Below, in pieces: positions 2,219 through 63,846 of a DNA stretch of 64,000 bases. The notes under the pieces were generated by a model. The model ran no database searches and was not told where the DNA came from. It saw nothing but the letters and a program-made list of their open reading frames with translations. A program made the translations under genes and the position numbers. How positions within the stretch are numbered: position 1 is the first letter of the stretch; the number at the start of each line of letters is the position of its first letter. The stretch covers positions 1,162 through 65,161 of the forward strand of contig JACPGS010000007.1 in the NCBI GenBank assembly GCA_016189025.1, written 5' to 3'. The stretch is from Candidatus Magasanikiibacteriota bacterium (GTDB lineage: Bacteria; Patescibacteriota; Patescibacteriia; Magasanikbacterales; GWA2-37-8).

Positions 2219-4030
2219 TTATTGGGGAAGATAATTTACGCTATAAATAGCATAAAAATCATCGGCATATTCCGGCCGCAAGCCGGTCTGATTATACCGC
2301 TCCCCGCCCGCTGGGTCAAGCTCTTTATTGTGGACGACATAGGTAACATTATAGCGGCGCAACGATTCGGCCGGGCGCACTTTTACTTCGGCAACATAGC
2401 GCTTAAATAAATCAATAAAATACTGCTCTCCGCGCCAGGAAACGGCCGTCGCCAATTCGCCGCACGGCCGCCCCAGGCGCGGCAGCTGCAGCAGCCAGCA
2501 AATTTTAACGGCGCGGTTATGCGTGCGATACTGATGCACGGCATTACCGACGCCGGCGTAAGTCTGAAAATCCCGCTCCAGATATTCCGGCGTCAATTCT
2601 TTAAATAGACTAGCGACCAAATAGCGGTCCTCTGCCTCGCGCGACGACAACAGATGCAAAATGCCTCCATTGGCAAAGAGCACGTAATGTTTGGTGAGCG
2701 CCGGAATATAGCTGGAGAGAGGATCGGCAGGGCCGGTCAACACTACCTGGGGTTTGGGCGCGGCCTGCTCCAGCCATTGGAGGGCTGGCAAGGAGTGGCG
2801 AAACCGCTCGTAGAGCGCTGCGGTATCATTGCGGGAGCGGAAAAACGACCAGTAGTGGCGGGCCAGGTAGCCCAGGCCAAGAATACTAAACACGAATAAT
2901 GCCAGCAGCAAATAACGCCGGGCACGATTTAAAACCCGCCAACCATCCCGATCTTTTATCGCTAATGCCAGGTAAGCCACCAATGCTAACGGCTGCCAGA
3001 CGGTCATAAAGCGGGAAATGTGCCCGGGCAATTCCAGGTCTTTGCCGGTAATGATGTTGCTGAAAGTTACTCCGATTAAAGCCAACCCGCTGCCAAGAAA
3101 AGTATAGAACGCGGTTCGCGCTAGCGAATTATCTCGCCAGTGATTGAAGAAGCGGTAGGTCAGCCACCATAGCCCTACCAGCGCCGCCACGCCAAAACTG
3201 GTATAAACCGCCTCGGCCATCGGCAGGCGGGTCTGCACCAAACCAATGCGCTCCATAGTTTCCCAGTAATAAGGATGCTGCAGTTGTCGGACGGTATAAA
3301 TAATCATCGGCAACGACAAAACAATCACTCCGGCTGCCATTAGCAACAGGCGCCGGAGGAGCAGCGTGCGCTGCCGCCGCGTGAACAAAAAAATTAAACC
3401 GGCCAGCACTAACCAGGCCAGCGCTACCTGGGCCAGGTAGGTATAAACGTAAAAAGTACCGGCGGCGGACAAAACAAAAAATACCTGCCGCGCCCGCGCG
3501 GTTGGTTGCTTAAACCACACAATAAACGACAGCAGTAGTAGTAGCCAAAAGGGAAATACGGTCTGCATGGAAACCGGCGTAATGATAATAAAGTATCCTT
3601 GGGCAAAGGTTAGCAACGCCCCGAGAGCGCTTCCCCATTTAGACACCCCCAACTGCGACAAAATCAAATAGGAGAAACAGATAAATACGGCAGACCAAAT
3701 CGCAACGTTGAGGAGGATAGTCGCGGCGAGCGGCAGCCCGGCAAACAAAGGCAGGGCGGCCAGCCAGTCGGCCACAAAAAACGCCGGCGCCGGATCGCGG
3801 TTATGCTCCTTAAAATACGGATTGCCGATAAAAGGAAACCCGTCCTTAATTTCGCGCAGCCGCGCGTTATAATAAGTGGAGCCGTAAGTGTGATGCGCCA
3901 GCAAGGCTAAAATTTCGCCGCGCGACCACTGGCGCACCTGGTAGGCCGCCACTATTCCCGGCAGGGCGGCCAGCAGGATAGCGACTGCCGATAAGCCGAT
4001 TAAAAATTTAAGGTGTGATTTCATAATCAT
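2219..4030 (-). CDS. polytopic membrane protein with a large C-terminal soluble domain (putative glycan polymerase/transferase; function unknown)
   Basis: 603 aa with about 10 hydrophobic segments followed by a soluble ~250-aa tail. It sits at the 3' end of the glycan locus. No confident family match from sequence alone. Confidence 0.4.
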   Translation of the reverse strand: MIMKSHLKFLIGLSAVAILLAALPGIVAAYQVRQWSRGEILALLAHHTYGSTYYNARLREIKDGFPFIGNPYFKEHNRDPAPAFFVADWLAALPLFAGLPLAATILLNVAIWSAVFICFSYLILSQLGVSKWGSALGALLTFAQGYFIIITPVSMQTVFPFWLLLLLSFIVWFKQPTARARQVFFVLSAAGTFYVYTYLAQVALAWLVLAGLIFLFTRRQRTLLLRRLLLMAAGVIVLSLPMIIYTVRQLQHPYYWETMERIGLVQTRLPMAEAVYTSFGVAALVGLWWLTYRFFNHWRDNSLARTAFYTFLGSGLALIGVTFSNIITGKDLELPGHISRFMTVWQPLALVAYLALAIKDRDGWRVLNRARRYLLLALFVFSILGLGYLARHYWSFFRSRNDTAALYERFRHSLPALQWLEQAAPKPQVVLTGPADPLSSYIPALTKHYVLFANGGILHLLSSREAEDRYLVASLFKELTPEYLERDFQTYAGVGNAVHQYRTHNRAVKICWLLQLPRLGRPCGELATAVSWRGEQYFIDLFKRYVAEVKVRPAESLRRYNVTYVVHNKELDPAGGERYNQTGLRPEYADDFYAIYSVNYLPQ

Positions 4031-4217
4031 GAGACTGCAGAAGAATAGAAATGACTAGTTAGCATCAGGGCGCGACAGACGAGTGTCTTTGGGCGCGCAC
4101 CCCGATTAAATCGGGGGAGCACCCAAAGAGTGTCTGCCGCGACCAACCAAGTAAATTTTAGCAATAGCGACAGCGACCAGGCGGAAAATGACATAGTTGA
4201 CATTCTTCTACAGTCTT
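4031..4217 (+). mobile_element. MITE-like intergenic repeat, family 1, copy A (forward)
   Basis: Left end GAGACTGCAGAAGAAT, right end ATTCTTCTACAGTCTT. Core hairpin GGCGCGACAGACGAGTGTCTTTGGGCGCGC - CCCGATTAAATCGGGG - GAGCACCCAAAGAGTGTCTGCCGCGACC, plus the TTAGCAATAGCGACAGCGACCAGGCGG box. Confidence 0.85.
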
Positions 4218-4227
4218 AATAAAAACT

Positions 4228-6944: not shown

Positions 6945-7139
6945 GATCTCAAAATTAATAAATAAAATATATGGCTGTGGATAATTTTTTGGCTAACTTG
7001 TGCTATTTATCGTTTATGGAATCAAAATGCAATTGACAAACCTCCTATTTTCTGATAATGTAGAAATACATAAACCTGTATTCCGAACTGTCACCGGACG
7101 GTGGCGTGGCTGGGACATCCAGCATAGGAACGTGGTTGA

Positions 7140-7166
7140 AAAGAGCCCTTCGGGGCTGTTTTTTGT
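7140..7166 (-). terminator. hairpin AGCCC-TTCG-GGGCT with flanking T/A runs, immediately after the DUF3800 gene stop
   Basis: The sequence aaaagagcccttcggggctgttttttg is a tetraloop hairpin with U-tracts on both strands. Confidence 0.5.
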
Positions 7167-7792
7167 TATTTAAACTTCCATTCGTCCTGGATATGATTTT
7201 TAATTATTTTCTTATACACTACAGCGTCGGTCTTGAAATCCTCATACGAACGATGAATACTACCAGCAATCATATCGGCCATTTGAATGAGCACATTCTC
7301 CCTTGAATCCACTAACTTGCAATGCTGCACAATACGTCGCTCATCACTATTTAATTGTGAACGTAGATAACTCACAAAGCTTCTCCGAAAAACACGATCC
7401 CCGCTGCCGTCTACCTTTATCTTCGCATCCAGAATTTTTCCATCACTATATTGCAACACCAACTTAATGGCATAACTATAAAACGACCTCTTATTTGTTC
7501 GCAGCTCCTCACTTCGAATAATAGACTTATCAATAACTAAACTCCGCACCGCAAATGAGAAAGGTAAAATTGTTCTCAAGAATTGTTCGCGGACAGTCTT
7601 GCGTGATTTCGCGAATTTAAACTCTACCGTATCGGGGAAACCCAGTCGGCGCCGCAGTTCCTTGATGGCCACGGCCGCCTTTTCTGCTTCTAGTGGATCG
7701 CGAAAAATAATCAAGGAAATGATAAAGTACCGGCTCGAACCCCGGTCTAGCTTAAATCCCGGATCACCAGAATCATCTATGAATACGAGCAT
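7166..7792 (-). CDS. DUF3800-family protein
   Basis: 208 aa with N-terminal MLVFIDDSGDPGF and later IQMADMIAGSI, resembling DUF3800 signature motifs. Local GC is about 38-40%, versus about 60% in the flanks. Confidence 0.5.
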   Translation of the reverse strand: MLVFIDDSGDPGFKLDRGSSRYFIISLIIFRDPLEAEKAAVAIKELRRRLGFPDTVEFKFAKSRKTVREQFLRTILPFSFAVRSLVIDKSIIRSEELRTNKRSFYSYAIKLVLQYSDGKILDAKIKVDGSGDRVFRRSFVSYLRSQLNSDERRIVQHCKLVDSRENVLIQMADMIAGSIHRSYEDFKTDAVVYKKIIKNHIQDEWKFK

Positions 7793-8080: not shown

Positions 8081-8731
8081 TTACTCCTTCACTTGGTAGA
8101 GCGCCAAATGGAATAAATCCAGGGGCGCCGGGAGGGGAAGTTTTTTCAGCTTTAATAGTTCAAACCTGGAAGCGCGGATAATACGCTCTACGCCGCGGGC
8201 ATTGTGATAATGCACGCCGGCGCCAGGGCCGTGCTCCATCGAATAAGTTCCCTTGAGCACAAAGCGCAGGGTTTTGTACCAGGCCGACTCCACCGGCTCG
8301 CTGGTAATCAGGTAGCCGCCGGGCTTAAGAACGCGCCGGAATTCGGCGAGAGGCGGCAGCAAGTCGGCGATGTGCTCCAGCGTATCCAAAGTAACAATAG
8401 CGTCAAAGGAATGGCTGGGGAATTGCAGGGCATTCAGGTCCTGCACGGCAAAGTGCGCCGGCGCGAGCTTTTGCTTAAGTTCCCCGACTGACGGGTTCAG
8501 ATCAATCCCCCAAATCTCGCCGCCGGTCCAGCCCGATTTCAGTACTAGCTCAATAAATGCTCCCTGGCCGCAGCCGACGTCTAAAAAATTCCTCGCTTCA
8601 GTTTGCCGCAGAAAATCACGGGCAATCGTCAGGCGCCGATGGAATAACCAGCGCACCAGCGGATTGGCCGATTGATACTCGGGCACGATTTCGTGGAGTC
8701 CGATGTCAAATTTTTGGCGCGTGTCCAGCAT
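8081..8731 (-). CDS. class I SAM-dependent methyltransferase
   Basis: FLDVGCGQGAF (motif I), LKPGGYL and an IVTLDTLEHI-type post-I motif. Confidence 0.7.
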   Translation of the reverse strand: MLDTRQKFDIGLHEIVPEYQSANPLVRWLFHRRLTIARDFLRQTEARNFLDVGCGQGAFIELVLKSGWTGGEIWGIDLNPSVGELKQKLAPAHFAVQDLNALQFPSHSFDAIVTLDTLEHIADLLPPLAEFRRVLKPGGYLITSEPVESAWYKTLRFVLKGTYSMEHGPGAGVHYHNARGVERIIRASRFELLKLKKLPLPAPLDLFHLALYQVKE

Positions 8732-8734
8732 ATT

Positions 8735-8924
8735 GAGACTGTAGAAGAATTGAAAAATCAGTTAGCATCGGGGCGTGGCAGACGAGTGTCTTTGGGCGCG
8801 CATCCCCCGCGTCGGCGGGGGGAGCACCCAAAGAGTGTCTGCCACGCCCGACCAGGTTAAACTTAGCAATAGCGATAGCGACCAGTTAAATAGCAGTATT
8901 TCCGGCATTCTTCTACAGTCTCAA
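8735..8924 (+). mobile_element. MITE-like repeat, family 1, copy B (forward)
   Basis: Perfect 16-bp TIR GAGACTGTAGAAGAAT / ATTCTTCTACAGTCTC. The core has apical loop TCCCCCGCGTCGGCGGGGGG. Confidence 0.85.
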
Positions 8925-8940
8925 TATTGAAAAGGTTGGC

Positions 8941-12767: not shown

Positions 12768-12774
12768 AATTTTT

Positions 12775-12848
12775 GAGACTGTAGAAAATACCGGCAATAC
12801 CCACTGTTTAACTGGTCGCTATCGCTATTGCTAAAACTCACTTGGTTG
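12775..12848 (-). repeat. MITE family 1, truncated copy C (right arm only, reverse orientation)
   Basis: GAGACTGTAGAAAAT...CTGGTCGCTATCGCTATTGCTAAAACTCACTTGGTTG matches the reverse complement of the TTAGCAATAGCGACAGCGACCAGG...ATTCTTCTACAGTCTC arm. The hairpin core is absent. Confidence 0.7.
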
Positions 12849-17013: not shown

Positions 17014-17706
17014 CTAAGCAAATAAATTATATTTTACAATTGCCCAAATAGCGCTAAAGCCGTCGCGCACGCCGATTTTTTTACCCTCGGCATAGGTGCG
17101 TCCATAATAAGAAATGCCGACCTCATACACCCGCAGGCGGTGCTTGGCGACCCGCGCCGTAATCTCGGGCTCAATGGTAAACCGGTTGGCCGTCAGCTCT
17201 GGCGCAATGGTAGCGAGCGCGGCGCGGGTAAATGCTTTGTAGCAGGTTTCCATATCGGTGAGGTTGAGATTGGTGCAGAGGTTGGAAAGCCAGGTTAAAA
17301 ACTTGTTGCCGACGTAATGCCAAAACAGCAACACCCGATGCGGGCGGCTCCCCACAAAGCGCGAACCATAAACAACATCGGCCACGCCCTGTACTAAAGG
17401 CGCCAACAGATCGCGATACTCGCGGGGGTCATATTCCAAATCCGCGTCCTGCACAATAATAAAGTCACCGGTGGCCTCGCGAAACCCGCGGCGCAAGGCT
17501 GCTCCCTTGCCGGAATTTTTCTCCTGAAAAAAAATTTTGTGCTGGCCGGCCAGCCGCTGCAGAATCTCCCGCGTGCCGTCGGTGGAGCCATCGTCTACAA
17601 TCACTAGTTCTTTTTCCATGCCAGCATCTACTTCGGCTACTGCTGCAATCACCGGCAGAATAGTAGCGGCTTCGTTGTATACCGGAATCACTACGGAAAG
17701 TTTCAT
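17014..17706 (-). CDS. GT2 polyprenyl-phosphate sugar synthase (Dpm1/GtrB-like)
   Basis: MKLSVVIPVYNE, VDDGSTDGT, VQDADLEYDP. Confidence 0.8.
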   Translation of the reverse strand: MKLSVVIPVYNEAATILPVIAAVAEVDAGMEKELVIVDDGSTDGTREILQRLAGQHKIFFQEKNSGKGAALRRGFREATGDFIIVQDADLEYDPREYRDLLAPLVQGVADVVYGSRFVGSRPHRVLLFWHYVGNKFLTWLSNLCTNLNLTDMETCYKAFTRAALATIAPELTANRFTIEPEITARVAKHRLRVYEVGISYYGRTYAEGKKIGVRDGFSAIWAIVKYNLFA

Positions 17707-17708
17707 AC

Positions 17709-18881
17709 TTACTCCTCAAAATAATCAATAATTTTCCCAATCACCGTATCCAAATTATGATGCGCGCGAACAAAACCAATCGCTGCTTGATTAGGCAACT
17801 TTTCCGGCTTTAGTATACCATTCTGCCACATTTTTTCAATGGTTTGGGCCAGGGCCGCCGCGTCTCCGGCGGGGAAGGTCCACACTACTCCCGCGCGCTC
17901 GGCATCAGCATAGGCAGGGCTAGAAGTGATAACGTAGCGGCCGGCGGCGAGCGCCTCCAACACTACCTTATCCGCGCTGCCGGTGCGGCTGGGGTGGATA
18001 AGAAGATGATAACGATGATAAATACTGGGCATCTCCAGATAATCCTTCCGCTCACTGCGGAAACCTACTGCCCTGCCCCGGCTTGGTCGCTCGGTCGCGG
18101 CAGACACTCTAGGTGCTCGCGGAGCTGCGCGCCTAGAGAACTCGTCTGCGGCTCCCTCGCTCATTCGTAATTCAAAGTTATTAGTCATTTCCTCTAAATA
18201 CTTTTGATAATGCTTATCGGCTGCCGTAATTGGACTGCCGACAATGGTAAAACGTAAATGGGGAAAATCAGGCACCTGCTGGAGTTGGATTAAGGCTTGG
18301 AAGATAATTTCGTAATTCTTCACTGCACTAATCCGGCCGACCGCTAAAAGCCACAATTCATGAGGATCGGCAATCTCTTCCGGTCCCGCCGCGAATAATT
18401 CCACCGGAATCCCGTGCCCCACCACCTCCACCTTGGCGCTCGGCAAGCGAAAACTCTCCGGCGAGGCGGTGAAAATTTTGTCCGCTCGCTTTTCCGCCTG
18501 CTTCAACCACCAGTTAACTGATTTATGCACATACCAAAGGAGAATTTTTTTCTGATGTTTCCGCCACCACCAACCGCCGAGCACCACATATTCCGGATTC
18601 ATGTGAACGAAAACACCATCATAATCATTTTGATACTGCCGGATCAAGCGACGAAAACGGAAATAATAAACCAAACGCCGTAGTAGTTTAGGGAGTCTTA
18701 ACATCTTTTCCTTTCCCAGCGACAATACGGTAACATTATTCGGCAACTCAAATTCACCTTGTTCCAAACAAATCACAATCAAGCGCTCGGTGCGCGCCGA
18801 GAGGCGGCGCAGCCATTCAAGAAAAAACCCCAGCGCCGGATCGGCGCGGTCTACTTTTTGAGTAATCACCAATAAACGCAT
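17709..18881 (-). CDS. GT4 glycosyltransferase carrying an in-frame insertion of a MITE family-1 core
   Basis: GT4 C-terminal motifs are IHPSRTGSADKVVLEALAAGRYVITS. An insert of about 35 aa, AADEFSRRAAPRAPRVSAATERPSRGRAVGFRSER, is encoded by the repeat core. Confidence 0.7.
   Translation of the reverse strand: MRLLVITQKVDRADPALGFFLEWLRRLSARTERLIVICLEQGEFELPNNVTVLSLGKEKMLRLPKLLRRLVYYFRFRRLIRQYQNDYDGVFVHMNPEYVVLGGWWWRKHQKKILLWYVHKSVNWWLKQAEKRADKIFTASPESFRLPSAKVEVVGHGIPVELFAAGPEEIADPHELWLLAVGRISAVKNYEIIFQALIQLQQVPDFPHLRFTIVGSPITAADKHYQKYLEEMTNNFELRMSEGAADEFSRRAAPRAPRVSAATERPSRGRAVGFRSERKDYLEMPSIYHRYHLLIHPSRTGSADKVVLEALAAGRYVITSSPAYADAERAGVVWTFPAGDAAALAQTIEKMWQNGILKPEKLPNQAAIGFVRAHHNLDTVIGKIIDYFEE
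18084..18168 (-). repeat. MITE family-1 hairpin core inserted in-frame within a GT4 CDS (copy K)
   Basis: CTTGGTCGCTCGGTCGCGGCAGACACTCTAGGTGCTCGCGGAGCTGCGCGCCTAGAGAACTCGTCTGCGGCTCCCTCGCTCATT aligns with the intergenic copies, for example 52440..52540. The reading frame is preserved. Confidence 0.75.
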
Positions 18882-18885
18882 AAAT

Positions 18886-20118
18886 CTACCACCAACGCCC
18901 CAGGCGTTCGCTGACAGTGCCAAAATTCAACAGCACATCAGCGGCGGTGAGCGCCAAAAGAGAAACGGCAACGCCCACCGCCGGCGCGCGGCGCCACCAA
19001 CCCGGGGTTTCGCGCGCCCAGACTACCAATAGTCCGGCACCCAAAGCCAACCATGGATAAAGCGGAAAGCGATAACGCGACTGCACAACGGTAAACAATA
19101 ACGGCAAGGGGGCAGTAAGAGCCAAAGCCAGCAGATATTTCAGGAGCGGCTGGGGTGATTGGCGCCAAAATAGTGCCAGCCCGGCACCGCCGCTTAAGAA
19201 TAAAATGGCGATGCTTAACGTCGAAAAGGCAACAAAAATAAGCTGACTTAAACCGTACTGATAAAACCAAAATCCCATCGGCCGGATCAAACTCCCGTAG
19301 CGAATTAGTCGCAGGGCAGTAAGTTTAAGGAAAACTAAAGGATGAGCGGTCAAAAACGACCAAAACTCGCGGCTGGCTTCGGCCGAGAGTCCGCCATAGC
19401 CATACTGCTCGCCGTAAACACGCACCGGATTTAGTCCACCGGAGAGTTGCCCGCCGTCCGCCGCCAAAGTATTGCCGATCCATAGATTAAAAGCGCCGAT
19501 CAGAGTAGTGGGGATAAACTCATGAAACACCAGGTAATTGCGCACGGTCCAGGGGACCAGGGGAATAATCAGGCCAAGAAAAAACGGAATCAACGCCCGA
19601 TAACGGCGGGTGGCAATAAACGCTGCTAAAAATACCGGTACGAACAGCACTACCGTAGGGCGGGTGAGAATCGCCAGGGCGCTGACGACGCCAAGGACAA
19701 GAGCTGAACTAAGCCGCGCCTGACTCCGCCACCACTCTACAAAAAGATACACTACCAGCACGGCCAAGAAAAGAAACAGCGTTTCGGTTAAAAGCATTGC
19801 CGAGATTTCAATTAAATCTGGATGCAGCCCAAACAGAGCGGCGGTGATAATCCCCACCAGTTTCCCCCGCTCGCCCCACACGCGCCGCGCGATTAGATAT
19901 AAGAGGAGAGCGGAAAACGCGTGCAGCAGGGATTGGACTACCCAAACCGGCTGGTAGCGATGGCCAAACAGAGCATAAACTGCAGCCAGCCAAAATTCAT
20001 ACCCCGGCCCGGCGCGGGTAATCGCTAAATCGCGGGTAAACCCCTGGCTGCGATCTTCCCGAAAGCCATCACCGCTGACCAGATTCCAGGCAATAGAATC
20101 ATAAGCTTTGGCGTCCAC
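18886..20118 (-). CDS. GT-C fold membrane glycosyltransferase (ArnT/PMT-like, GT39/83); the N-terminal TM helix is encoded upstream, beyond an in-frame TGA
   Basis: Begins (GTG) DAKAYDSIAWNLVSGDGF, which matches the ArnT DE..Y...SGD motif. The same frame at 20230..20149 encodes MFQSWRRLINNNRLLAIIIAASFLLSLGYSF, then TGA. Confidence 0.55.
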   Translation of the reverse strand: MDAKAYDSIAWNLVSGDGFREDRSQGFTRDLAITRAGPGYEFWLAAVYALFGHRYQPVWVVQSLLHAFSALLLYLIARRVWGERGKLVGIITAALFGLHPDLIEISAMLLTETLFLFLAVLVVYLFVEWWRSQARLSSALVLGVVSALAILTRPTVVLFVPVFLAAFIATRRYRALIPFFLGLIIPLVPWTVRNYLVFHEFIPTTLIGAFNLWIGNTLAADGGQLSGGLNPVRVYGEQYGYGGLSAEASREFWSFLTAHPLVFLKLTALRLIRYGSLIRPMGFWFYQYGLSQLIFVAFSTLSIAILFLSGGAGLALFWRQSPQPLLKYLLALALTAPLPLLFTVVQSRYRFPLYPWLALGAGLLVVWARETPGWWRRAPAVGVAVSLLALTAADVLLNFGTVSERLGRWW

Positions 20119-20234: not shown

Positions 20235-20422
20235 TAGATTGCAGCAGAATAGGAACAACTAATTAGCATCAGGGCGCGGCAGACGAGTATCTTTGGGCGC
20301 GCAGCCCCGCGTAAGCGGGGGGAGCACCCAAAGAGTGTCTGCCGCGACCAACCAGGCAATCCTAGCAATAGCGATAGCGACTAGGCGGATAACGATATAG
20401 TTGGTATCCTTCTCCAGTTTCA
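20235..20422 (+). mobile_element. MITE-like repeat, family 1, copy D (forward; degenerate TIRs)
   Basis: TAGATTGCAGCAGAAT ... core with loop GCCCCGCGTAAGCGGGGGG ... TAGCAATAGCGATAGCGACTAGGCGG ... ATCCTTCTCCAGTTTC. Confidence 0.8.
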
Positions 20423-21415
20423 TTAAATCGCACGTAATGCTTTAACCCACTGCTCTTGATTATTGATCGGCAAAATTTGTACTGATTCCCCGGGCAGCAC
20501 CTCATAATTCGCCACGCCCACGTCATTCATAATCACGCGAGTACCCGCGGCCATCGCCTCCATTACGGCTAGACCATAACCTTCACTTAAACTGGGGAGC
20601 AGCAGGGCGTCAACTGTTTTAAGATAGCTCCACGGGTCAGCGGTCCACCCTTCCAGCTTGACATTATTCTCCAGCCGCAATTTTTTAATCAAACGGCGTA
20701 TCCGCGCTTCCGCGCGCCCGGCCCCGGCCAAAAGCAACAGCGCCCGCGGCCGCTCGCGTACCACGGCGGCGAATGTTTTAACCAGCCAAGGCACGTTCTT
20801 TACCGGATCTAAGCGCCCTAGCCACAAAAAAATAGGGCCAAACCCGGGATATTTTTCGCGCGCGGAAAATCGCGGTGCCCAAGCGCGAATCGCTGCCGTA
20901 TCCACCGCAATCGGCTGCACCGTAATTTTATCTGCCGCCACTCCCAAGGAGAGTACGCCGCGCTTTACCCGCTCCCCCACTGCCCGCACCCAAGTAGCGC
21001 GGCGCAAGACGAACTTGCCCAAGTGCCAGCGCAACTGCTCCCCTAGGCTGCCGTGGCGATAATAAGCCGACAGATAAAAATCGCCATGCGCCTGCACCGT
21101 AAGCGCGGCGCCGGTTTCGTATTTCAAAAACCAACCTATCAGCCCGGTTCCAAACGGATCCTGGGCGGTAATCGCGGGAATCTGCCGCTCCTGAATCAGC
21201 CGCTTGCCGCTGGCAAGAAGCCGAAAAAATTGCTGCGGTTTGTTGCCGCCGGTGGATTGCACGTGCACCGTGGGGCTTAAATCCAAGGCCGCCCGCTCCG
21301 GCGCGGGAATAATAATAAATAATTCATCCGTCTCTCCATATTGCCGCATCCGCCCGGCGGCGCGCGAGTGCGGATCCAAAATAGAGCGATCCAGGCTAAT
21401 CATTAGTTGACGCAT
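20423..21415 (-). CDS. GT4 glycosyltransferase
   Basis: FLWLGRLDPVKN, LLLAGAG and LLLPSLSEGYGLAVMEAMAAGTRVI are typical of GT4. Confidence 0.7.
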   Translation of the reverse strand: MRQLMISLDRSILDPHSRAAGRMRQYGETDELFIIIPAPERAALDLSPTVHVQSTGGNKPQQFFRLLASGKRLIQERQIPAITAQDPFGTGLIGWFLKYETGAALTVQAHGDFYLSAYYRHGSLGEQLRWHLGKFVLRRATWVRAVGERVKRGVLSLGVAADKITVQPIAVDTAAIRAWAPRFSAREKYPGFGPIFLWLGRLDPVKNVPWLVKTFAAVVRERPRALLLLAGAGRAEARIRRLIKKLRLENNVKLEGWTADPWSYLKTVDALLLPSLSEGYGLAVMEAMAAGTRVIMNDVGVANYEVLPGESVQILPINNQEQWVKALRAI

Positions 21416-23224: not shown

Positions 23225-23922
23225 TCATCTATGCTCTTCCAAAATAGCTTGTCCAGCACCACTCCGGTGTTAGCATCAATATATAACTCTTCGCCGTTAG
23301 CCTCATCGCGAGAATCCGATAAGATATTGGAAACCCCCCAGATATAAGTATTATATCGAACATGCCAATTAAACCACGCCTCCCGCCCTTTAATTCCCCC
23401 GCTCAATCCAGCGGCTTCGGCAATGGCGAGCGCCTGCTGTTTGTCAATGGGAAATTTGCACTCTCTAGGTTCCCTCACACAATCCGGCAAACCAAATACG
23501 TCGCGTTCAACAATCAATTGTCCGCTACTATCGAGCGCAAATTCAATAAGCTGATCTTTGACAAAAGGTCGGTCGGGAATAGTAAAAGAATAAACCATTA
23601 AATAATAGGGCTTTTGTAAAAACTGCAAACAAAAAGAGGGATTTTTGATACAGTGTTCATTCGCCGGATAAAGCCTGCTTTTCTGCGTACTAAAAGTGAC
23701 GTACTGGCGAAAAAATTTTTCATCAATTTTGGAAATAATAAAACGATCGGCTTTCGCTATAATAGCTGCCGGCATTGGTTCATGCTTCTCTTCGCGGAAG
23801 CTCCTAGTACTGAATAATGGTGGGCGTAAAATATCGTACCAATACAAACCGAATACGAACCCAATAACCAAAACAATAAATAGTACCACTGCCCTTAACA
23901 ATAACTTAATGCGCAGAGTCAT
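23221..23922 (-). CDS. hypothetical membrane-anchored protein
   Basis: 233 aa with a single N-terminal TM (LLLRAVVLFIVLVIGFVFGLYW). No recognisable family. Low-GC context. Confidence 0.35.
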   Translation of the reverse strand: MTLRIKLLLRAVVLFIVLVIGFVFGLYWYDILRPPLFSTRSFREEKHEPMPAAIIAKADRFIISKIDEKFFRQYVTFSTQKSRLYPANEHCIKNPSFCLQFLQKPYYLMVYSFTIPDRPFVKDQLIEFALDSSGQLIVERDVFGLPDCVREPRECKFPIDKQQALAIAEAAGLSGGIKGREAWFNWHVRYNTYIWGVSNILSDSRDEANGEELYIDANTGVVLDKLFWKSIDD

Positions 23923-25115
23923 AATTGGGAAAAAATTACTTGCATATCTCTGGCGATGCCTTGCCAGATATACTTCTCGGCGATGAGCTTTCGACTATTC
24001 TCCCGCAACCGCTCGGCTAATAATTTATCGTCGAAAATCTTTTTAATCTTCTCCGCAATGTCTTTAGGGTCGCCGACTTGGCAGAATAAACCGGTCTCTC
24101 CGTCTTGCAAAAAATCCGGAATACCGCCGACTGGCGTCGCCACCACCGGCAGACCAGCGGCCATTGCTTCCAAAAAAGCGCTGCCCAGGCCCTCGGAACG
24201 GCTGGGCCGACAGAATACATCGCTGTCCCACAAATACTTAGGCAATTCATCGTGCGATAAACTTCCTAAAAAATGCACTCGCTCGGCTAAATGCAATTGC
24301 TTGGCCAAACTCTTCAATTTGCCTTCTAGGGGACCGCTGCCAGCGATCAATAAATGAACGGATGGCGGTAAAAACTGCATGGCTTTTATGAGATCGGCTA
24401 CCCCATTCTTTTTTACCAAACGCGAGGCGGTAATTACTAAAGAAACATCATTCCGAGCAAAGGGAGCGCTAGCGACCGTAGTCGAGGAATCTCTTAATTT
24501 AGCGAGAAGGATTCCTCCACTCCCCCGACTTAGTCGGGGTCGGTCGGAATGACAGTTGAACCGCTCAATATCTACACCGTTGGGAACCACCTCCACCGGA
24601 CATTTCGCGCCGAGTTGGCGCGCCCAGGCCGCCAAATAATTGCTAATCGCCTGAATCCGATCGGCCCGCTGAAAAATTTGTTTGAAATACGGCCAGCACC
24701 ACCAGACATGTTTATAAATCTGCCACCGACTATCGCCCTCTTGCAGGGTCAGCAAAAAGGGAACGGCCGGATTTCTTTTTTTATAACGCAAAGCAGCGAA
24801 TCCCCCGTAGCTTGCCATAATCGCCCACACCAAATCAAACCGGCCTAACTTCCTGGCTTCCTGCCAACCAACTTTAACGAGCCGGTACTTATCCCAGTGA
24901 TTGTCCTCTCCGATGCGGTGCACCTCAATATTTCCGATACGTTCAATCTCCGGCAATTTTGCATCTAACCGCGCGGTGAGCATCACAAACTCAAACTCGC
25001 CGCCGAGTCGATCGGTAATTTCTTTTACGGCAAACTCGGCGCCGCCCACCAGTGGCAAATAGGCAGTGGAAAAAATCAGAACCCTTTTAGCGGGCAAAGG
25101 CGACATAGTTACCAC
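23919..25115 (-). CDS. GT4 glycosyltransferase carrying an in-frame family-2 repeat insertion
   Basis: Has PLVGGAEFAV and LLIAGSGPLEGKLKSLAK...FCRPSRSEGLGSAFLEAMAAGLPVVATPVGG. The extra segment HSDRPRLSRGSGGILLAKLRDSSTTVASAP is encoded by the repeat at 24485..24560. Confidence 0.7.
   Translation of the reverse strand: MVTMSPLPAKRVLIFSTAYLPLVGGAEFAVKEITDRLGGEFEFVMLTARLDAKLPEIERIGNIEVHRIGEDNHWDKYRLVKVGWQEARKLGRFDLVWAIMASYGGFAALRYKKRNPAVPFLLTLQEGDSRWQIYKHVWWCWPYFKQIFQRADRIQAISNYLAAWARQLGAKCPVEVVPNGVDIERFNCHSDRPRLSRGSGGILLAKLRDSSTTVASAPFARNDVSLVITASRLVKKNGVADLIKAMQFLPPSVHLLIAGSGPLEGKLKSLAKQLHLAERVHFLGSLSHDELPKYLWDSDVFCRPSRSEGLGSAFLEAMAAGLPVVATPVGGIPDFLQDGETGLFCQVGDPKDIAEKIKKIFDDKLLAERLRENSRKLIAEKYIWQGIARDMQVIFSQL
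24485..24560 (-). repeat. family-2 palindromic repeat (core CCCCGACTAAGTCGGGG) inserted in-frame in a GT4 CDS
   Basis: Its reverse complement, ...CCGACCGACCCCGACTAAGTCGGGGGAG..., matches the intergenic copies at 40678..40785 and 56508..56571. Confidence 0.65.
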
Positions 25116-31842: not shown

Positions 31843-34086
31843 CTAATCTAACTGATACTCCTTAATAAACTTTTCCACCTCGCCATGGAGCGGCGGGAAC
31901 AGTTTCCGGATCGTTTCCGCCAGCTCGCGCGCCTTTATTTTGTCGCCCTGGACCGCGTAAGCAGCCGCCAGGCGCACGTACCACAGGGGATTCTCCGGCT
32001 CGGCGTTCAATAATTTCTGATAGCCTGCTATTACTCTACCATATTCTTTCGCGGTCGCCAATAGATCCAGCCAATGCAGGGTCTGATCGCGATTCAGCAG
32101 GTAGCCGAGGGCCGGCGCGCGATCAATCTCGGCCAGGGCGCGGACGCGATCGCCAGCCGCTTCGTAACCTAATCCTAAAAAGAAGTGGCTGATGCCGATT
32201 GAGGGATCAATATCCACCGCCTCTTGCAAAATCTCAATTCCTTGACGGAAACTCCCCGCCAATAAATAACGGCGCGCTGCTAAAAATAAAATATCCTGCT
32301 TGCGCGGTGAAAGAGCGCGCGCTGCTTCCAGGTACTTTCCCGCCTCTTCCCAGTAGCGCGGGTCAACCTGTTCGCCGAGCACCAGATAAATCTGCCCGGC
32401 CCAGATGGGGTAGCCGGCGGCCCCGGGGTGGCGGCGCGCGGCAAAGCCCAAGGCTTCGGCCAACCGGAGTGCGGTAGCAACCGTAGAGGAACTATTAAGG
32501 CGCACACCGGCCTGATCCAGGCGGACAAACTGCTCGGCGACAAATATCAATCCTTCATCCTGTTTGGGGGTGGTTAAAACCAAGGCGGAGGCCGCGGCTG
32601 AAGTCCACTGATTAGCGTCCGGCGCCGTGGCGGCCCGCTGCATCGCGCGTGCCGCGCGCCAGGGAACCAAATGCCATGCCCCTAACGAGTAAACCAGACC
32701 GGCCAAAAGTATTACGCTAGCCAAACCAACAATCGCGCCGGGCAATTTTCTCCCGTTGGCTAAACTGGCTGCCGGCTGCCGAGCCACGATACCGGATTGA
32801 CTGCCGAGCCAGGCCAAAATAAACCAAAACAACAGCAGCGAATTGCTGGTTTCAAATAAAAATAATAAGGAGACAAAATATCCCGCCAGCGTGACCGATA
32901 AAATAACGATTGCCCCGCGCAAAACCGCCTCCTGCTTTACTTTTCTAATCGCCCGCGCCAGCGCACTGCCATAAAGCGCCAGGTAAGCAAGTAAACCAGC
33001 TGCTCCGCTCCCCACCGCCACCTCCAGGGGAAAATTGTGCGGCTTATCCCAGACCGTTTCGGCAAATCCATACTGCAAAAAACGGGGACGGTAATATTTT
33101 AAAAACACCGGCTCAAAATTCCCCCAGCCCCAGCCCAAAAGAGGCCGCTCGCGCACTCCTTCTAGCGCGCTCCCCCAGGCGAGTAAGCGCGTTTCGCCCG
33201 TACCAGTAGTAAAACTGCGCCAATCAAACAAACGCGGTAAGAGAGAGAAACGCGCCGTGACAGTCGGTACGCCAGCCAGCCAAGCACCGCCTACCAGAAG
33301 CAAGATTATCGCCGCGAGCGCGGCAAGGCACCAACGCCGCGCCATAGGCAAAACCATCGCCCCGGCAATAAGCCCCATGATTAGCGCGATCAAAAAGCCG
33401 AGCAGTGGACCGCGACTGCCGCTGAAAAACAAGGCACTGATAATTAAAAATGCTCCGGCTACCACCAGGCTGCGCTTGGTTACTGACCAATTTCGCCAAT
33501 CGGCTGCCAAAGCTGCCAAGGCAATGCCTAGAGCCAACAACAGATACTCGGCGGCAAACGCCCGATTGCCGATAATACCCCCACCGGCAATACTTTGCCA
33601 GCTGGCAGGCAGGCGCGACTGTCCAAACATCGTTAAGGCTACCAGCGCGGCGACTATGGTCATCAGGACCAAAGCCCGCCCACGTTCCGGCTCGCGCGAG
33701 AGCAGGTATCGCCGCGCCAAGGCGTACCAGGCGCCAAAATGCCACCAGGTGAATACTCCGCTCGCGCGCGACAGATTGCCCCAAAAACTAAAAACCGGGT
33801 CACCCCCTAAAAGAGCGGTGGCCGTAATCACTGTCAAAAATGCCGCCACTGCCCAGTCCAGCCCGGTTAACCGCCTGACTATCCACCAAATGTCATTCCC
33901 GCGCCAGCGGGAATCCAGTCGCAGCCACCGCCAGCAATGCAAAAATAACGCTACCTCTACCACCGCTTGGAATAAAATCGTCTTGCCCAAATGCCAGCCA
34001 AAAAGCAACCCGGGCGTAATCGCCAGAGGGAGTAACAGCGTAAGGTAAAGCAGCCAAACAATAAAGCGGGAAATACGATCAGACAT
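31843..34086 (-). CDS. O-antigen ligase/polymerase-like (Wzy_C) membrane protein with C-terminal TPR domain (paralog of 28962..31034)
   Basis: FFSGSRGPLLGFLIALIMG motif. TPR-like tail (YLLNRDQTLHWLDLLATAKEYGRVIAGYQKLLNAEPENPLWYVRLAAAYAVQGD). Confidence 0.5.
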   Translation of the reverse strand: MSDRISRFIVWLLYLTLLLPLAITPGLLFGWHLGKTILFQAVVEVALFLHCWRWLRLDSRWRGNDIWWIVRRLTGLDWAVAAFLTVITATALLGGDPVFSFWGNLSRASGVFTWWHFGAWYALARRYLLSREPERGRALVLMTIVAALVALTMFGQSRLPASWQSIAGGGIIGNRAFAAEYLLLALGIALAALAADWRNWSVTKRSLVVAGAFLIISALFFSGSRGPLLGFLIALIMGLIAGAMVLPMARRWCLAALAAIILLLVGGAWLAGVPTVTARFSLLPRLFDWRSFTTGTGETRLLAWGSALEGVRERPLLGWGWGNFEPVFLKYYRPRFLQYGFAETVWDKPHNFPLEVAVGSGAAGLLAYLALYGSALARAIRKVKQEAVLRGAIVILSVTLAGYFVSLLFLFETSNSLLLFWFILAWLGSQSGIVARQPAASLANGRKLPGAIVGLASVILLAGLVYSLGAWHLVPWRAARAMQRAATAPDANQWTSAAASALVLTTPKQDEGLIFVAEQFVRLDQAGVRLNSSSTVATALRLAEALGFAARRHPGAAGYPIWAGQIYLVLGEQVDPRYWEEAGKYLEAARALSPRKQDILFLAARRYLLAGSFRQGIEILQEAVDIDPSIGISHFFLGLGYEAAGDRVRALAEIDRAPALGYLLNRDQTLHWLDLLATAKEYGRVIAGYQKLLNAEPENPLWYVRLAAAYAVQGDKIKARELAETIRKLFPPLHGEVEKFIKEYQLD

Positions 34087-34145
34087 AACAGCAGAGTAAG
34101 CCCGGTGTAAGCAATAATGAGCGAGGGAAATGAGCGAGGGAGTGG

Positions 34146-34225
34146 TAGACGGGTTCCCTACGCGCGCACCCCCGCGTAGGCGGGGGGAGCACGGAGGGTG
34201 TCTACCACGACCGAGCGACCAGGTT
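34146..34225 (+). repeat. divergent MITE family-1 core (copy J, core only)
   Basis: GTGGTAGACGGGTTCCCTACGCGCGCACCCCCGCGTAGGCGGGGGGAGCACGGAGGGTGTCTACCACGACCGAGCGACCAGG. The hairpin architecture is retained with a GCGT-type apical loop. Confidence 0.6.
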
Positions 34226-34272
34226 AGGGCATTTGGTATTCAGGGGTGTTACGATTGTACCACCGGCGCGGC

Positions 34273-39769: not shown

Positions 39770-39804
39770 AATTCCTTTTGCTTACTCTGATCATTACTAA
39801 ACTG

Positions 39805-39982
39805 AAATTGTTGCAGAAGAATCCAAACTATTTCACCTGATTCGCCTGGTCGCTGTCGCTATTGCTGGGACTGCCTGATTGGTCGCGGCAGACACTCTTT
39901 GGGTGCTCCCCCGATTTAATCGGGGTGCGCGCCCAAAGACACTCGTCTGCCGCTCCCTGATGCTAACTGGTTTCTTCAAATT
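39805..39982 (-). mobile_element. MITE-like repeat, family 1, copy E (reverse)
   Basis: TTGCAGAAGAAT...CCTGGTCGCTGTCGCTATTGCT...GGTCGCGGCAGACACTCTTTGGGTGCTCCCCCGATTTAATCGGGGTGCGCGCCCAAAGACACTCGTCTGCCGC... Confidence 0.85.
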
Positions 39983-39990
39983 ATCTCAAA

Positions 39991-40677: not shown

Positions 40678-40785
40678 AAATATCAATTTTCTTAAGCGGT
40701 CATCGCGGTCGCCTAAGGCGACCGACCGACCCCGACTAAGTCGGGGGAGGGGGTTTGACCGCGAAAAAATTGATATGTTTTAGCC
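40678..40785 (+). repeat. family-2 repeat, full copy with inverted termini AATATCAATTTT / AAAATTGATATG
   Basis: Nested hairpins GTCGCCTAAGGCGAC and CCCCGACTAAGTCGGGGG. Shares the GACCGC...AATTGATATRTTTTAGCC tail with 56508..56571. Confidence 0.65.
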
Positions 40786-40826
40786 TTATATATAGAGAGC
40801 GTTTTAATTAGCACTATTGATTCACT

Positions 40827-41006
40827 AAAATTTGTATAGACTAGTCTATACAAATTTTATCATTTTTGCCTAAAATTAGCAAAAACTCCTTAAACATTAC
40901 TTTTATATATTTGTATACAACAGTGTATACAAATTATTGATTAAAAATAACCCCTTGACAGCTTAGCCAATTTTTGCTAAAATTTGTATACACTAATGTA
41001 TACAAA
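40827..41006 (+). promoter_or_regulatory. three operator-like palindromes TTTGTATA(C/G)A-N4-T(G/C)TATACAAA plus a consensus sigma-70 promoter (TTGACA 40955..40960, N17, TAAAAT 40978..40983)
   Basis: Palindromes at 40827..40858 (perfect, 32 bp), 40909..40934 and 40981..41006. The last overlaps the -10/+1 region of the downstream HTH gene. Confidence 0.6.
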
Positions 41007-41009
41007 CTT

Positions 41010-41345
41010 ATGGCAATGACGAAAAATACTGAAGAAAAAAAGGAGATTATCCGTGTTTCTATCTCGGAAGCAGCCCGGCTGTTCGGCGTTAACAGCCAAA
41101 CTATCCGGCGCGCCATTAAAAATCAGGAAATTACTTATGTAGTAGTGTCCGGACGGTATAAACTTAATTTTGAAAGCCTGGTGCGCTGGTCGCAAATCCA
41201 TACTACCGTAAAGAACAAACTGGCGCATCGCGGCATTGGCCAGTTTGTGGATAAGTGGAAAATTAAAAATCCGCTGTATTCCCCCAATCCTAAATCAATT
41301 ACTCCAAAGTCTCCCGCCCCGCCAATTACTTCAGGGAACCTTTAA
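41010..41345 (+). CDS. small helix-turn-helix DNA-binding protein (excisionase/MerR-superfamily HTH_17-like)
   Basis: MAMTKNTEEKKEIIRVSISEAARLFGVNSQTIRRAIKN. The start is chosen downstream of the promoter. Context is AT-rich. Confidence 0.5.
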   Translation: MAMTKNTEEKKEIIRVSISEAARLFGVNSQTIRRAIKNQEITYVVVSGRYKLNFESLVRWSQIHTTVKNKLAHRGIGQFVDKWKIKNPLYSPNPKSITPKSPAPPITSGNL

Positions 41346-41400
41346 TCCTCCTCTCACCGGGAGGATTTTAGTTTGACCGCAATACTTAGCCTGCTATAAT

Positions 41401-41590
41401 GAAACTGCAGAAGAATATCAACTATTTCGTTATCTACCTGGTCGCTATCGCTATTGCTGGTAACTGCCTGGTTGGTCGCGGCAGACACTCTTTGGGTGCT
41501 CCTCCCGACTAAAGTCGGGACTGCGCGCCCAAAGATACTCGTCTGCCGCTCCCTAATGCTAACTGGTATTTTTAATTCTTCTACAGCCTC
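41401..41590 (-). mobile_element. MITE-like repeat, family 1, copy F (reverse)
   Basis: AAACTGCAGAAGAAT ... core with apical loop CCCGACTAAAGTCGGGA ... ATTCTTCTACAGCCTC. Confidence 0.85.
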
Positions 41591-49967: not shown

Positions 49968-50040
49968 TGAAACTGTAGAAGAATTGAAAAACGACAGCGA
50001 CCAGGCGGAAAATGATATAGTCGGTATTATTCTACAGTCT
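49968..50040 (+). repeat. MITE family 1, internally deleted copy G (TIRs plus right arm, no hairpin core)
   Basis: AAACTGTAGAAGAATTGAAAAA-CGACAGCGACCAGGCGGAAAATGATATAGTCGGTATTATTCTACAGTCT. Confidence 0.75.
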
Positions 50041-50044
50041 AAAG

Positions 50045-52369: not shown

Positions 52370-52382
52370 ATCCAGATTGAGG

Positions 52383-52556
52383 TTGTTGAAGAATATGACA
52401 TTGTTATCCGCCTGGTCGCTGTCGCTATTGCTAAAATTTACTTGGTTGGTCGCGGCAGACACTCTTTGGGTGCTCCCCCGATTTAATCGGGGTGCGCACC
52501 CAAAGACACTCGTCTGCCGCTCCCTGATGCTAACTGATTATTCCTATTCTTCTAGA
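52383..52556 (-). mobile_element. MITE-like repeat, family 1, copy H (reverse)
   Basis: GTTGAAGAAT ... core with loop CCCGATTTAATCGGGG ... ATTCTTCTAG. Confidence 0.85.
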
Positions 52557-52598
52557 ATATTAATATCGTAAGCGTTCTTCTGAAGACTTCAGATTAAG

Positions 52599-56508: not shown

Positions 56509-56571
56509 AAATCTATTCGCCCCGACTAAGTCGGAACGCGACGACCGCTAGCCAATTGATATATTTTAGCC
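56508..56571 (+). repeat. family-2 repeat, short copy
   Basis: GCCCCGACTAAGTCGGAACGCGACGACCGCTAGCCAATTGATATATTTTAGCC. Confidence 0.6.
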
Positions 56572-59293: not shown

Positions 59294-59320
59294 CCTGTTA
59301 ATCATTACTTAATAACCTGA

Positions 59321-59508
59321 GGCTGTAGAAAAATTAAAAAACCAGTTAGCATCAGGGCGCGGCAGACGAGTGTCTTTGGGCGCGCAGTCCCGACTTTAGT
59401 CGGGAGGAGCACCCAAAGAGTGTCTGCCGCGACCAACCAAGTGAGTTTTAGCAATAGCGACAGCGACCAGGCGGATAATGATAAAGTGAGTGTGCTTCTA
59501 CAGTTTCA
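59321..59508 (+). mobile_element. MITE-like repeat, family 1, copy I (forward)
   Basis: GGCTGTAGAAAAAT ... core with loop TCCCGACTTTAGTCGGGA ... TTAGCAATAGCGACAGCGACCAGGCGG ... GCTTCTACAGTTTC. Confidence 0.85.
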
Positions 59509-59523
59509 AACCTTGAATTTGAT

Positions 59524-60267: not shown

Positions 60268-60427
60268 GCTGGGTGATGGCGTATTTTAAGCTGTTTTCCC
60301 TACGGTTGTCAATGCTATTCCTTTAGACCCGTTGAAAAACTATTTTTGAGACACAGTTGTTATCCTTGCGAAACCTGTCTTCTGGATTCCCGCGTACGCG
60401 GGAATGACAGGTGAATTTTTCAACGTT

Positions 60428-62535: not shown

Positions 62536-63369
62536 CTACTTCTCTAGTCTCCGAAAGTGCGCCCGGAGCTTCTTAAGAGCGCGCTGTTCGACCTGCCGGA
62601 TGCGCTCACGGGTTACTTCTTGCTGGCTGCCGAGTGTCTTTAAAGTAGCCGGTTCCTCAACCAAGTGCCGCCGCCTCACAATCTCCCGCTCCCGCGGATT
62701 GAGTGCCCGCAAACCGATCTGTAGCTGCCGGGCGGCGAATGCGTTCTCCTCGGCCGCTAATAGCAACTCCTCCGGCGAAGCCGCCTCGGACGGCAACACA
62801 TCAGAGAGCGTCCGTTTTGTATCCACCGGAGTAGCGAGCGAGATTTCCGGATGCCCCATCCGCTCTGCCATCTCCTCTACCACGGAAAGCGGCATATCCA
62901 ACCACTCGGCGATTCCCCTGGCATCAGCCAAGAGCCCGTCTTTCTCCAGCTGCCGGCGCGCCCGCGAGATGTGAAAAAACAAGCGGCGCTGCTCGTGGGT
63001 GGTGCCTAGTTTCACCAGCCGGAAATTTCGGATGATGAAACGCAGAATGAAAGCGCGAATCCACCACGCCGCGTAAGTGGAGAGCTGTGTGCCGTGGTTC
63101 GGATCAAACTTTTCCACTGCCCGCAACAGGCCCAGGTTACCCTCGCTTACCAGGTCTTCCCAAGGAAAACCATAGCCCCGATACTGCCCCGCAATCTTGA
63201 TTACCAACCGAAGATTGCTGGTAACCAACCGATTGCGCGCCGGCTGGTTTCCGGCCCTGGCCTGCACGGCAAGCCTGCGCTCTTCTTCTGATGAATTAAG
63301 CAACGGATACTGACTGACCTCGCGAACATAAGCTCCCCACACGGAGGAGCTTTCCCTTGGCTGACGCAT
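62536..63369 (-). CDS. sigma-70 family RNA polymerase sigma factor, RpoH-like (heat-shock sigma-32-like)
   Basis: Region 2 (GNLGLLRAVEKFDP...LSTYAAWWIRAFI), an RpoH-box-like QRRLFFHISR, and region 4 (EREIVRRRHL...TLKTLGSQQEVTRERIRQVEQRALKKLR). Confidence 0.65.
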   Translation of the reverse strand: MRQPRESSSVWGAYVREVSQYPLLNSSEEERRLAVQARAGNQPARNRLVTSNLRLVIKIAGQYRGYGFPWEDLVSEGNLGLLRAVEKFDPNHGTQLSTYAAWWIRAFILRFIIRNFRLVKLGTTHEQRRLFFHISRARRQLEKDGLLADARGIAEWLDMPLSVVEEMAERMGHPEISLATPVDTKRTLSDVLPSEAASPEELLLAAEENAFAARQLQIGLRALNPREREIVRRRHLVEEPATLKTLGSQQEVTRERIRQVEQRALKKLRAHFRRLEK

Positions 63370-63846
63370 GGTTCCCCCCTTTTTCTAGGGTGTGTGAAAA
63401 GAGCGGCGCGGACTATTCCGCGTTTCTCTGTTCTAGTTGCCACTAATCCTAAGTGAAACTAGGCTAGTTGTCAAGCCGAGAACGGCTTACAGCCAGAGCT
63501 AACGCAATGAGTAAATTTTAGGCGATTACTCACTCCGTTAGAAATGACTGTCTATAAAGAACTTCGGAGGGAGGGCGGCCAGCTGCTGCTGGCCGCCCTC
63601 CCGGGACTCCCCCCGAGAGGTGGGGTGGAGGTGGAGAGCCGAATCCCGACGGAAGTCGGGAGGCTCTACTCGAAATGGCGCGACTTCAATTGCCCGGTTC
63701 GGTGGGCGGGGTGGACGGCCGGCGCGCGGGGCGCGAAGGCCGGGGCGTGCCGAGCCCGGTGCTGGGCGCCGGCGGGCAGACGTAGGGCGGCGGACGGGGG
63801 GTGGAGTTAGGCTGGGGCGTGGGTTCGGGCATGGCTCCCTCCTCGC

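Follow-up and report, generated by a model that had tools for sequence, protein, structure and literature searches.

An in-frame palindromic repeat core in a predicted GT4-type glycosyltransferase gene of a Patescibacteria-like lineage

In-frame fusions between an intragenic MITE (miniature inverted-repeat transposable element) and the open reading frame (ORF) of its host were called 'not unusual' in a 2024 review, in which the Rickettsia palindromic elements (RPEs) represent an unusually frequent case (PMC10969869). In Coxiella burnetii, QMITE1 and QMITE2 occur as in-frame internal insertions as well as C-terminal ORF extensions (PMC5896051), and the small mobile RU and ERIC sequences of enterobacteria are also found within genes (Delihas 2007, PMC2759123; Delihas 2008/2011, PMC2229807, PMC3184786). 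Here, we analyzed a stretch of 64,000 nucleotides (called the window) from contig JACPGS010000007.1 of a Candidatus Magasanikiibacteriota bacterium, in which a GT4-type glycosyltransferase (GT) gene carries within its reading frame a segment homologous to the core of a palindromic repeat family. An initial annotation had described this segment as a MITE core with RPE-like behaviour and had given the RPEs as the known precedent. The likeness to RPEs holds, but they are not the sole precedent (MITE-ORF fusions and QMITEs being others) and the novelty is below that assumed. A literature search on repeat-derived peptides and MITEs in Patescibacteria found no paper describing such a case; the insert is a fresh example of a known phenomenon and not a new kind of biology.

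A repeat core within the frame of a glycosyltransferase gene

The segment is contained in ORF 17709..18881 on the minus strand, which is a single uninterrupted frame of 390 aa, in agreement with the earlier claim that the frame is unbroken. The claim that the segment is homologous to the intergenic repeat core was borne out by a leave-one-out nhmmer profile, built without the in-gene copy, which matches 18075-18181 with E = 5.9e-18; when only the seven full copies go into the profile, the segment is matched with E = 2.1e-12. Core identity between the in-gene copy and the other copies is 82-91%, and the closest copy (90.8%) is 20236-20426 in the same operon. Ungapped homology to 34129-34231, the copy with the closest architecture, covers 18074-18165 (92 nt), and the two have end sequences in common, namely TGCCC..GGTCGCTCGGTCG at one end and CTCCCTCGCTCATT at the other. 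The start had been placed at 18084, which needs correction, as the string quoted for it begins at 18082 and the DNA homology extends over 18074-18165. Searching the window with a 60-nt core, exactly and with three mismatches, returned the self-match only, and detection of the homology therefore needed repeat and profile methods.

The in-gene copy lacks 11 nt comprising the left half and the loop of the apical hairpin, while it keeps most of the long stem (with one G-G mismatch in it) and a compensated stem CTCTAGG/CCTAGAG where other copies have CTCTTTGGG/CCCAAAGA. Its fold has z = -1.3 (23 of 200 shuffles fold as well) compared with z = -5.5 for 34129-34231. A sliding-window fold scan left the in-gene copy unflagged (z about -0.2 to -0.8 versus GC-matched windows), so that it could not have been discovered from structure alone, and a terminator and promoter scan gave no site coinciding with 18074-18165. 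As a result of the 11-nt deletion, the element is read in two frames: MSEGAADEF, in the N-terminal half of the encoded peptide, corresponds to frame 1 of the 34129 copy (MSEGVVDGF) and PRVSAATERP, in the C-terminal half, to its frame 0 (RRVSTTTERPG, then a stop), the frame being common to both copies for the first ~13 residues only.

To place the insert in the protein, alignments with 29 and with 120 homologs were used, the larger set having 44-59% identity to the host protein and its named members being labelled Patescibacteria or Magasanikbacteria. The span from the near-invariant G215 to H296 has 82 aa in the host protein. Among the 120 homologs it is most often 51 aa long (67 cases) and at most 63, so that the host protein exceeds the mode by exactly 31 aa, and none of these homologs contains the segment. 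The best match to the host protein, P0001 (56% identity), lacks the insert according to BLASTP. Its 7.3-kb contig (L001) carries six genes, and every one of them has a collinear counterpart in the window (47-77% identity), which makes P0001 the positional ortholog. No copy of the repeat family is present on L001 nor on three more related loci (L006-L008). The initial annotation had named an alignment against orthologs as a check, and its outcome is the one expected for an insertion: the segment is missing from all homologs and from an ortholog on a contig devoid of the repeat. A 345-aa GT in L007 (13235..14272) was a candidate for a second ortholog but was discarded, as it has 33% identity only and a diverged C-terminal domain.

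P0001 reads ...SSPAVGFRSERTYKEMP, whereas the host protein reads ...FELR followed by the insert MSEGAADEFSRRAAPRAPRVSAATERPSRGR and then AVGFRSERKDYLEMP. The eight codons right after the insert encode the same residues as in P0001 and differ only at four synonymous third positions, which makes this boundary sharp and identifies AVGFRSER as native sequence; these residues form a beta-strand in the structure model described below. About 35 added residues had been reported initially. This number does not stand, since the 35-aa string took in the native AVGFRSER and left out the element-derived MSEG, and the insert amounts to 31 aa (residues 240-270). It is rich in Arg, Ala, Ser and Pro, adds seven Arg and raises the calculated isoelectric point (pI) of the host protein from 9.24 to 9.47. 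GC content is 69% in the insert (18072-18164) versus 49% in the remainder of the gene, and a tandem GGGCA GGGCA is found at one insert junction. A search for the 31-aa peptide in a set of 1.84 billion representative proteins gave no match at E <= 0.001.

Pfam searches with the host protein identified Glyco_transf_4 in the N-terminal and Glycos_transf_1/Glyco_trans_1_4 in the C-terminal part; all matches but Glyco_trans_4_4 exceed the curated cut-offs (32.4 versus 28.5 for Glyco_transf_4 and 45.3 versus 26.4 for Glycos_transf_1). An AlphaFold2 model calculated from a 30-sequence alignment reached a mean predicted local distance difference test score (pLDDT) of 89.6 and a predicted TM score (pTM) of 0.88. 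The top Foldseek matches of the model were HepE (4xso), MshA (3c4q), BshA and PimA (E ~1e-15, TM ~0.7), indicating a GT4 enzyme of the GT-B fold, and Pfam and Foldseek together reveal the two Rossmann domains of this type. In the model, the insert is located in the C-terminal Rossmann domain between helix 220-235 and strand 273-277 (GFRSE). Residues 242-252 and 259-269, both inside the insert, are the sole segments with pLDDT below 50, whereas block-mean pLDDT outside the insert is 83-98 and mostly above 90. Mapping onto a structure, the second check named at the outset, thus identified the insert as a low-confidence surface loop leading from helix to strand. In Rossmann folds, helix-to-strand loops are located on the face opposite the nucleotide-sugar site. 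From this topology, with no distance measured, the insert loop would be expected opposite that site, and it is probably a basic and, by prediction, disordered surface loop.

The host gene is part of a minus-strand operon with the order GT4 (20423..21415), repeat copy, PMT_2 (18886..20118), host GT and GT2 (17014..17706). The PMT_2 stop is 4 nt ahead of the host ATG and the GT2 start 2 nt past the host stop. The operon belongs to a cell-surface glycosylation cluster of ~34 kb which also codes for more GT4 and GT2 proteins, PMT_2, Wzy_C/TPR proteins, sugar epimerases/dehydratases, methyltransferases and asparagine synthase. The host protein itself is absent from a collection of 5.8 billion proteins, its best match there having 56% identity.

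A tolerated insertion weighed against other readings

The analysis shows that the segment is homologous to the repeat, that both the homologs and the syntenic ortholog lack it, that the frame is intact and that the model places the segment in a loop, and we consider it very likely that a core-only palindromic repeat was inserted in frame in the GT gene and is translated as a tolerated loop, both translation and enzyme activity being predicted. The ~103-nt core-only form of a lineage-specific palindromic family, whose full form is a ~190-nt MITE-like element, would have entered the gene at a point coding for a surface loop of the C-terminal Rossmann domain, the one that joins helix 220-235 to strand 273-277. 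Since the net gain of 93 nt is in frame and stop-free, the ribosome would read through, and the product would carry a 31-residue basic loop, predicted to be disordered, on the side opposite the nucleotide sugar. Because of this position, the GT-B fold and the conserved residues would be left untouched. The insert would then be a tolerated passenger without a function of its own in an enzyme that is presumably still active, and the 11-nt apical deletion and the stem mismatch may mean that the hairpin decayed, or was selected against, from the time it had to be translated. The 11-nt deletion (103-104 nt reduced to 92-93 nt) may or may not have restored a frame broken by the insertion, as the junctions are uncertain by a few nucleotides.

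Several points weigh against a translated insertion of this kind. The in-gene copy and 34129-34231 have neither arms nor terminal inverted repeats (TIRs), and no direct repeat flanks 18074-18165; because TIRs and a target-site duplication are missing, any transposition of the in-gene copy is hypothetical, and for the same reason it was probably not moved by a transposase acting on the full-length elements. Since the in-gene copy is a core-only derivative, 'MITE core' is a fair name for it and 'MITE' is not. The detectable DNA homology of 92 nt is not divisible by three, which leaves the exact junctions uncertain by 1-5 nt. Three of the six frames of the in-gene copy are stop-free, and the open frame alone is thus weak evidence of selection. 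Scans of GTDB genomes and JGI metagenomes with the gapped pattern GGCAGACACTCTN{15,45}ACTCGTCTGC did not retrieve the repeat family; they returned 2 + 2 loci, all of them chance matches without profile similarity. Finally, the protein search yielded no relative above 60% identity and hence neither an empty-site allele nor an estimate of the ratio of nonsynonymous to synonymous substitution rates (dN/dS).

If the insertion is real but inactivated the enzyme, the gene would be a young pseudogene, its ORF still being open as the event was recent and as the GC-rich element is stop-free by chance. The three stop-free frames make read-through cheap, and the many GT4 paralogs of the cluster could compensate for a loss of activity. 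Nevertheless, we regard this as improbable, because all family-invariant residues are kept (the 19 columns invariant in 121 family members include the residues of the host protein), no other lesion is present in the 390-aa ORF, the gene is part of a translationally coupled operon, and the insert is located in a loop from helix to strand whose length differs by up to 12 aa among the homologs anyway. In addition, the in-gene copy is as diverged (82-91%) as the other copies are mutually and has lost 11 nt, and is therefore not obviously recent. Much less probable still is a repeat-induced chimeric join that placed the copy inside the gene during assembly. Nine copies in the window hold the core region, in addition to two arm-only fragments, and repeats of this kind classically lead to misassembly in metagenome bins, but the in-gene sequence is unique (11-nt deletion, own substitutions, no identical copy in the window) and both junctions run on in the same gene, in frame and with the conserved blocks in the right order. 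The reverse direction or a coincidence, i.e. an ancestral coding segment or a GC-rich variable loop that resembles the repeat, fits the length variability of the loop in the family but is effectively refuted by the absence of the segment from 120 homologs and the syntenic ortholog, the lack of any match among 1.84 billion protein representatives, the leave-one-out match (E = 5.9e-18), the increase in GC by 20 points at the insert, and the intergenic location of the other copies, the full ones with TIRs and 4-bp flanking repeats.

The repeat family and described systems

A census by nhmmer identified seven full copies of ~190 nt, two core-only copies (34129-34231 and the in-gene copy) and two partial copies in the window (Table 1). 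Only the in-gene copy (1 of 11) is intragenic, all others being intergenic. TIRs of 17-18 nt, TGAGACTGTAGAAGAAT / ATTCTTCTACAGTCTCA, are present in most full copies, with one end degenerate in c20, c39 and c52. Direct repeats of 4 bp flanking the full copies are perfect in two of seven (ATAT, GGTT), match at three of four positions in two more and are absent in the rest. The full copies occur in both orientations relative to transcription. With TIRs, a small size, multiple copies and no transposase inside, the full-length family shares these properties with MITEs. A scan of 45 window ORFs detected no transposase domain, RAYT/Y1 transposase included, no parent insertion sequence with matching TIRs is present within the window, and Rfam at gathering thresholds assigned no known RNA family to any repeat copy. 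The core is a long compound hairpin of 70-100 nt with z = -5 to -7 versus shuffles in the intergenic copies, and double changes that compensate each other affect 7 of the 28 stem pairs among the copies.

An apparent overlap of copy 52375-52559 with the ORF of a P-type ATPase was rejected as an artefact of choosing the longest ORF; the likely real start (MKKITFGIQGMHC) is 5 nt past the element. Full copies end 0-15 nt from the adjacent start codon at four places (0 nt at 4030, 3 at 8731, 5 at 52369 and 15 at 41605), and no obvious Shine-Dalgarno sequence is present between these copies and the start codons. The full-length element either favours sites just upstream of start codons or provides the 5' untranslated region.

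Table 1. Coordinates of the in-gene repeat core, its host gene and the copies of the repeat family in the window.
Feature	Coordinates	Strand	Evidence and remarks
In-gene repeat core, core-only variant	18074..18165	+	Inverted-repeat pairs I22, I25 with 34129-34231; alignments; nhmmer
In-frame insert, 31 aa MSEGAADEFSRRAAPRAPRVSAATERPSRGR, residues 240-270	18072..18164 (93 nt)	-	Homolog alignments, P0001 BLASTP, codon junction, pLDDT
Host gene, GT-B/GT4-type glycosyltransferase	17709..18881	-	ORF list, Pfam, AlphaFold2, Foldseek
Full-length copy	4032..4222	-	Intergenic; TIRs TGAGACTGTAGAAGAAT / ATTCTTCTACAGTCTCA; nhmmer E = 1.8e-63
Full-length copy	8736..8928	-	Intergenic; perfect 4-bp direct repeat ATAT flanks TIRs
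Full-length copy	20236..20426	-	Intergenic, same operon, between GT4 20423..21415 and PMT_2 18886..20118
Full-length copy, right end degenerate	39803..39990	+	Intergenic
Full-length copy	41396..41589	+	Intergenic
Full-length copy	52375..52559	+	Intergenic; end 5 nt upstream of likely true ATG (MKKITFGIQGMHC), P-type ATPase gene
Full-length copy	59320..59512	-	Intergenic; perfect 4-bp direct repeat GGTT flanks TIRs
Core-only copy, 103 nt	34129..34231	-	Intergenic, upstream of Wzy_C/TPR gene 31843..34086; hairpin z = -5.5
Partial copy, left arm only, stops where core would start	12770..12848	+	nhmmer E = 2.7e-12, profile positions 4-82
Partial copy, left-arm fragment	49991..50043	-	nhmmer E = 1.3e-09

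Like the window repeat, RPEs (Ogata et al. 2000, 2002, as reported in PMC10969869) are palindromes of ~100-150 nt which occur between genes and in frame in an enzyme gene, contribute an extra peptide where the fold tolerates it (translation being predicted here) and have no associated transposase. The in-gene copy is likewise a palindromic repeat in frame within a conserved GT gene, stop-free as judged from its sequence, and in the AlphaFold2 model its position at the surface is compatible with the fold. In contrast, about half of the RPE cases are located in ORFs and their peptide is conserved, whereas in the window family a single copy of the 11 within 64 kb is intragenic and no encoded peptide is conserved; many intragenic copies in unrelated genes with a conserved peptide, as known for RPEs, were not found in the window. 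The in-gene copy also differs in its reading frame, which is switched within the element by the internal 11-nt deletion. RPE hosts are Rickettsia and the window lineage is Patescibacteria-like; a sequence relationship is not expected, and kinship was judged by behaviour only. The in-gene case works like an RPE but is no member of the RPE family, and the RPE-like behaviour proposed in the initial annotation holds for an in-frame palindromic insert in a conserved gene and is not shown family-wide.

QMITEs resemble the window family in that they are mainly intergenic MITEs with occasional in-frame insertions or extensions and a shift in pI (the change from 9.24 to 9.47 in our case). Their effects in genes of known function are found at gene ends (enhC, pntAA) and their mid-ORF in-frame cases in hypothetical proteins, whereas the window insert is found in the interior of a recognisable enzyme, with conserved blocks on both sides; in sequence, QMITEs and the window family are unrelated. 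RU and ERIC are similarly small, MITE-like intergenic repeats with open frames that occasionally occur in genes and add peptides, but they differ from the window family in sequence, host and hairpin architecture. REP/BIME sequences (PMC3733652) share with the family that they are GC-rich extragenic palindromes maintained as hairpins. REPs are 20-40 nt long and come with a RAYT (PMC3733652), whereas the window core is a compound hairpin of 70-100 nt with no RAYT among 45 ORFs; the combination of a 20-40-nt palindrome, a conserved tetranucleotide head and a RAYT was not found in the window.

Palindromes in other genes and significance of the insert

Another GT4 gene of the window (23919..25115, minus strand) has ~26 extra residues, NCHSDRPRLSRGSGGILLAKLRDSSTTVASAPFARNDVS, in the inter-domain linker when compared with its syntenic ortholog on L001. 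They are coded by a 103-nt palindrome (24449-24551, z = -4.2) with 8-bp TIRs CATTCCGA/TCGGAATG, which has no detectable relation to the 18074 family. Its hairpin module GACCGACCCCGACTAAGTCGGGGGAG recurs intergenically at 40722-40752 and in part at 56520-56534. The linker length is 20-60 aa in 120 homologs of this protein, and the closest homolog (P0121, 68% identity) has a different palindrome of ~125 nt in the same linker (L006 2884-3010, z = -6.35). Linker peptides of the VIPAKAGIQ- or SFPRRRES-type are present in at least 6 of the 120 homologs. In both cases that were checked (L007 10525-10556 and L008 5545-5575), such peptides are coded by GTCATTCCYGCG...GCRGGAATC hairpins, which read VIPAQAGIQ in P0175 and VIPAKAGIQ in P0149; hairpins of this type are also found intergenically in L007 and L008. 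Short ATTCCCGC-N4-GCGGGAAT hairpins of the same widespread type are present in the window at 33895-33914 (in ORF 31843..34086) and at 60386-60405 (intergenic), the former reading LDSRWRGNDI in frame near the N-terminus of a Wzy_C/TPR protein. The sole Wzy_C/TPR homolog compared (25% identity) has a 5-aa gap near this hairpin peptide. The pattern in GT clusters was sampled, not quantified. It suggests that palindromes in translated form turn up repeatedly in these gene clusters; a phylum-wide, RPE-like habit, by which GT genes of the Patescibacteria cell-surface glycosylation cluster repeatedly absorb differing palindromes in frame, at loops and linkers, is a tentative idea that we rather doubt at present.

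Further structured features of the window were recorded. The Rfam DUF3800-IX RNA motif was detected at 7073-7141 (+) with 54.4 bits and E = 5e-9; it adjoins the gene of a DUF3800 protein (7166..7792, minus strand), which is the expected pairing. A perfect, AT-rich palindrome, TTTGTATAsnnnnsTATACAAA, occurs three times at 40825-41009 at intervals of 73-79 nt, upstream of a small HTH_17 gene (40974..41345) and reaching into its start; in appearance, these palindromes resemble operators or iterons. At two intergenic sites (40700-40790 and 56520-56570) a hairpin is followed by AATTGATATrTTTTAGCC, an arrangement that may be a shared module of terminator plus promoter. Of all predicted folds in the window, the strongest is that of 63521-63680 (-77 kcal/mol for 110 nt, GC 0.71, z = -5.4 versus GC regression), where several GC-rich hairpins without a match to the repeat family are present beyond the sigma-70 gene 62536..63369.

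With the in-frame repeat core, a known phenomenon, that of RPE, QMITE and ERIC/RU, is extended to a further phylum and a further gene family. Provided that the enzyme is active, as its sequence leads us to expect, it would be an example of a non-coding palindromic repeat that was turned into protein sequence without destroying the enzyme. If the pattern seen in the neighbouring GT genes generalises, repeat-derived loops would recurrently give rise to surface variation in the enzymes that these small-genome bacteria use for glycosylation, and they would systematically introduce odd low-complexity segments into protein annotations of the candidate phyla radiation (CPR).

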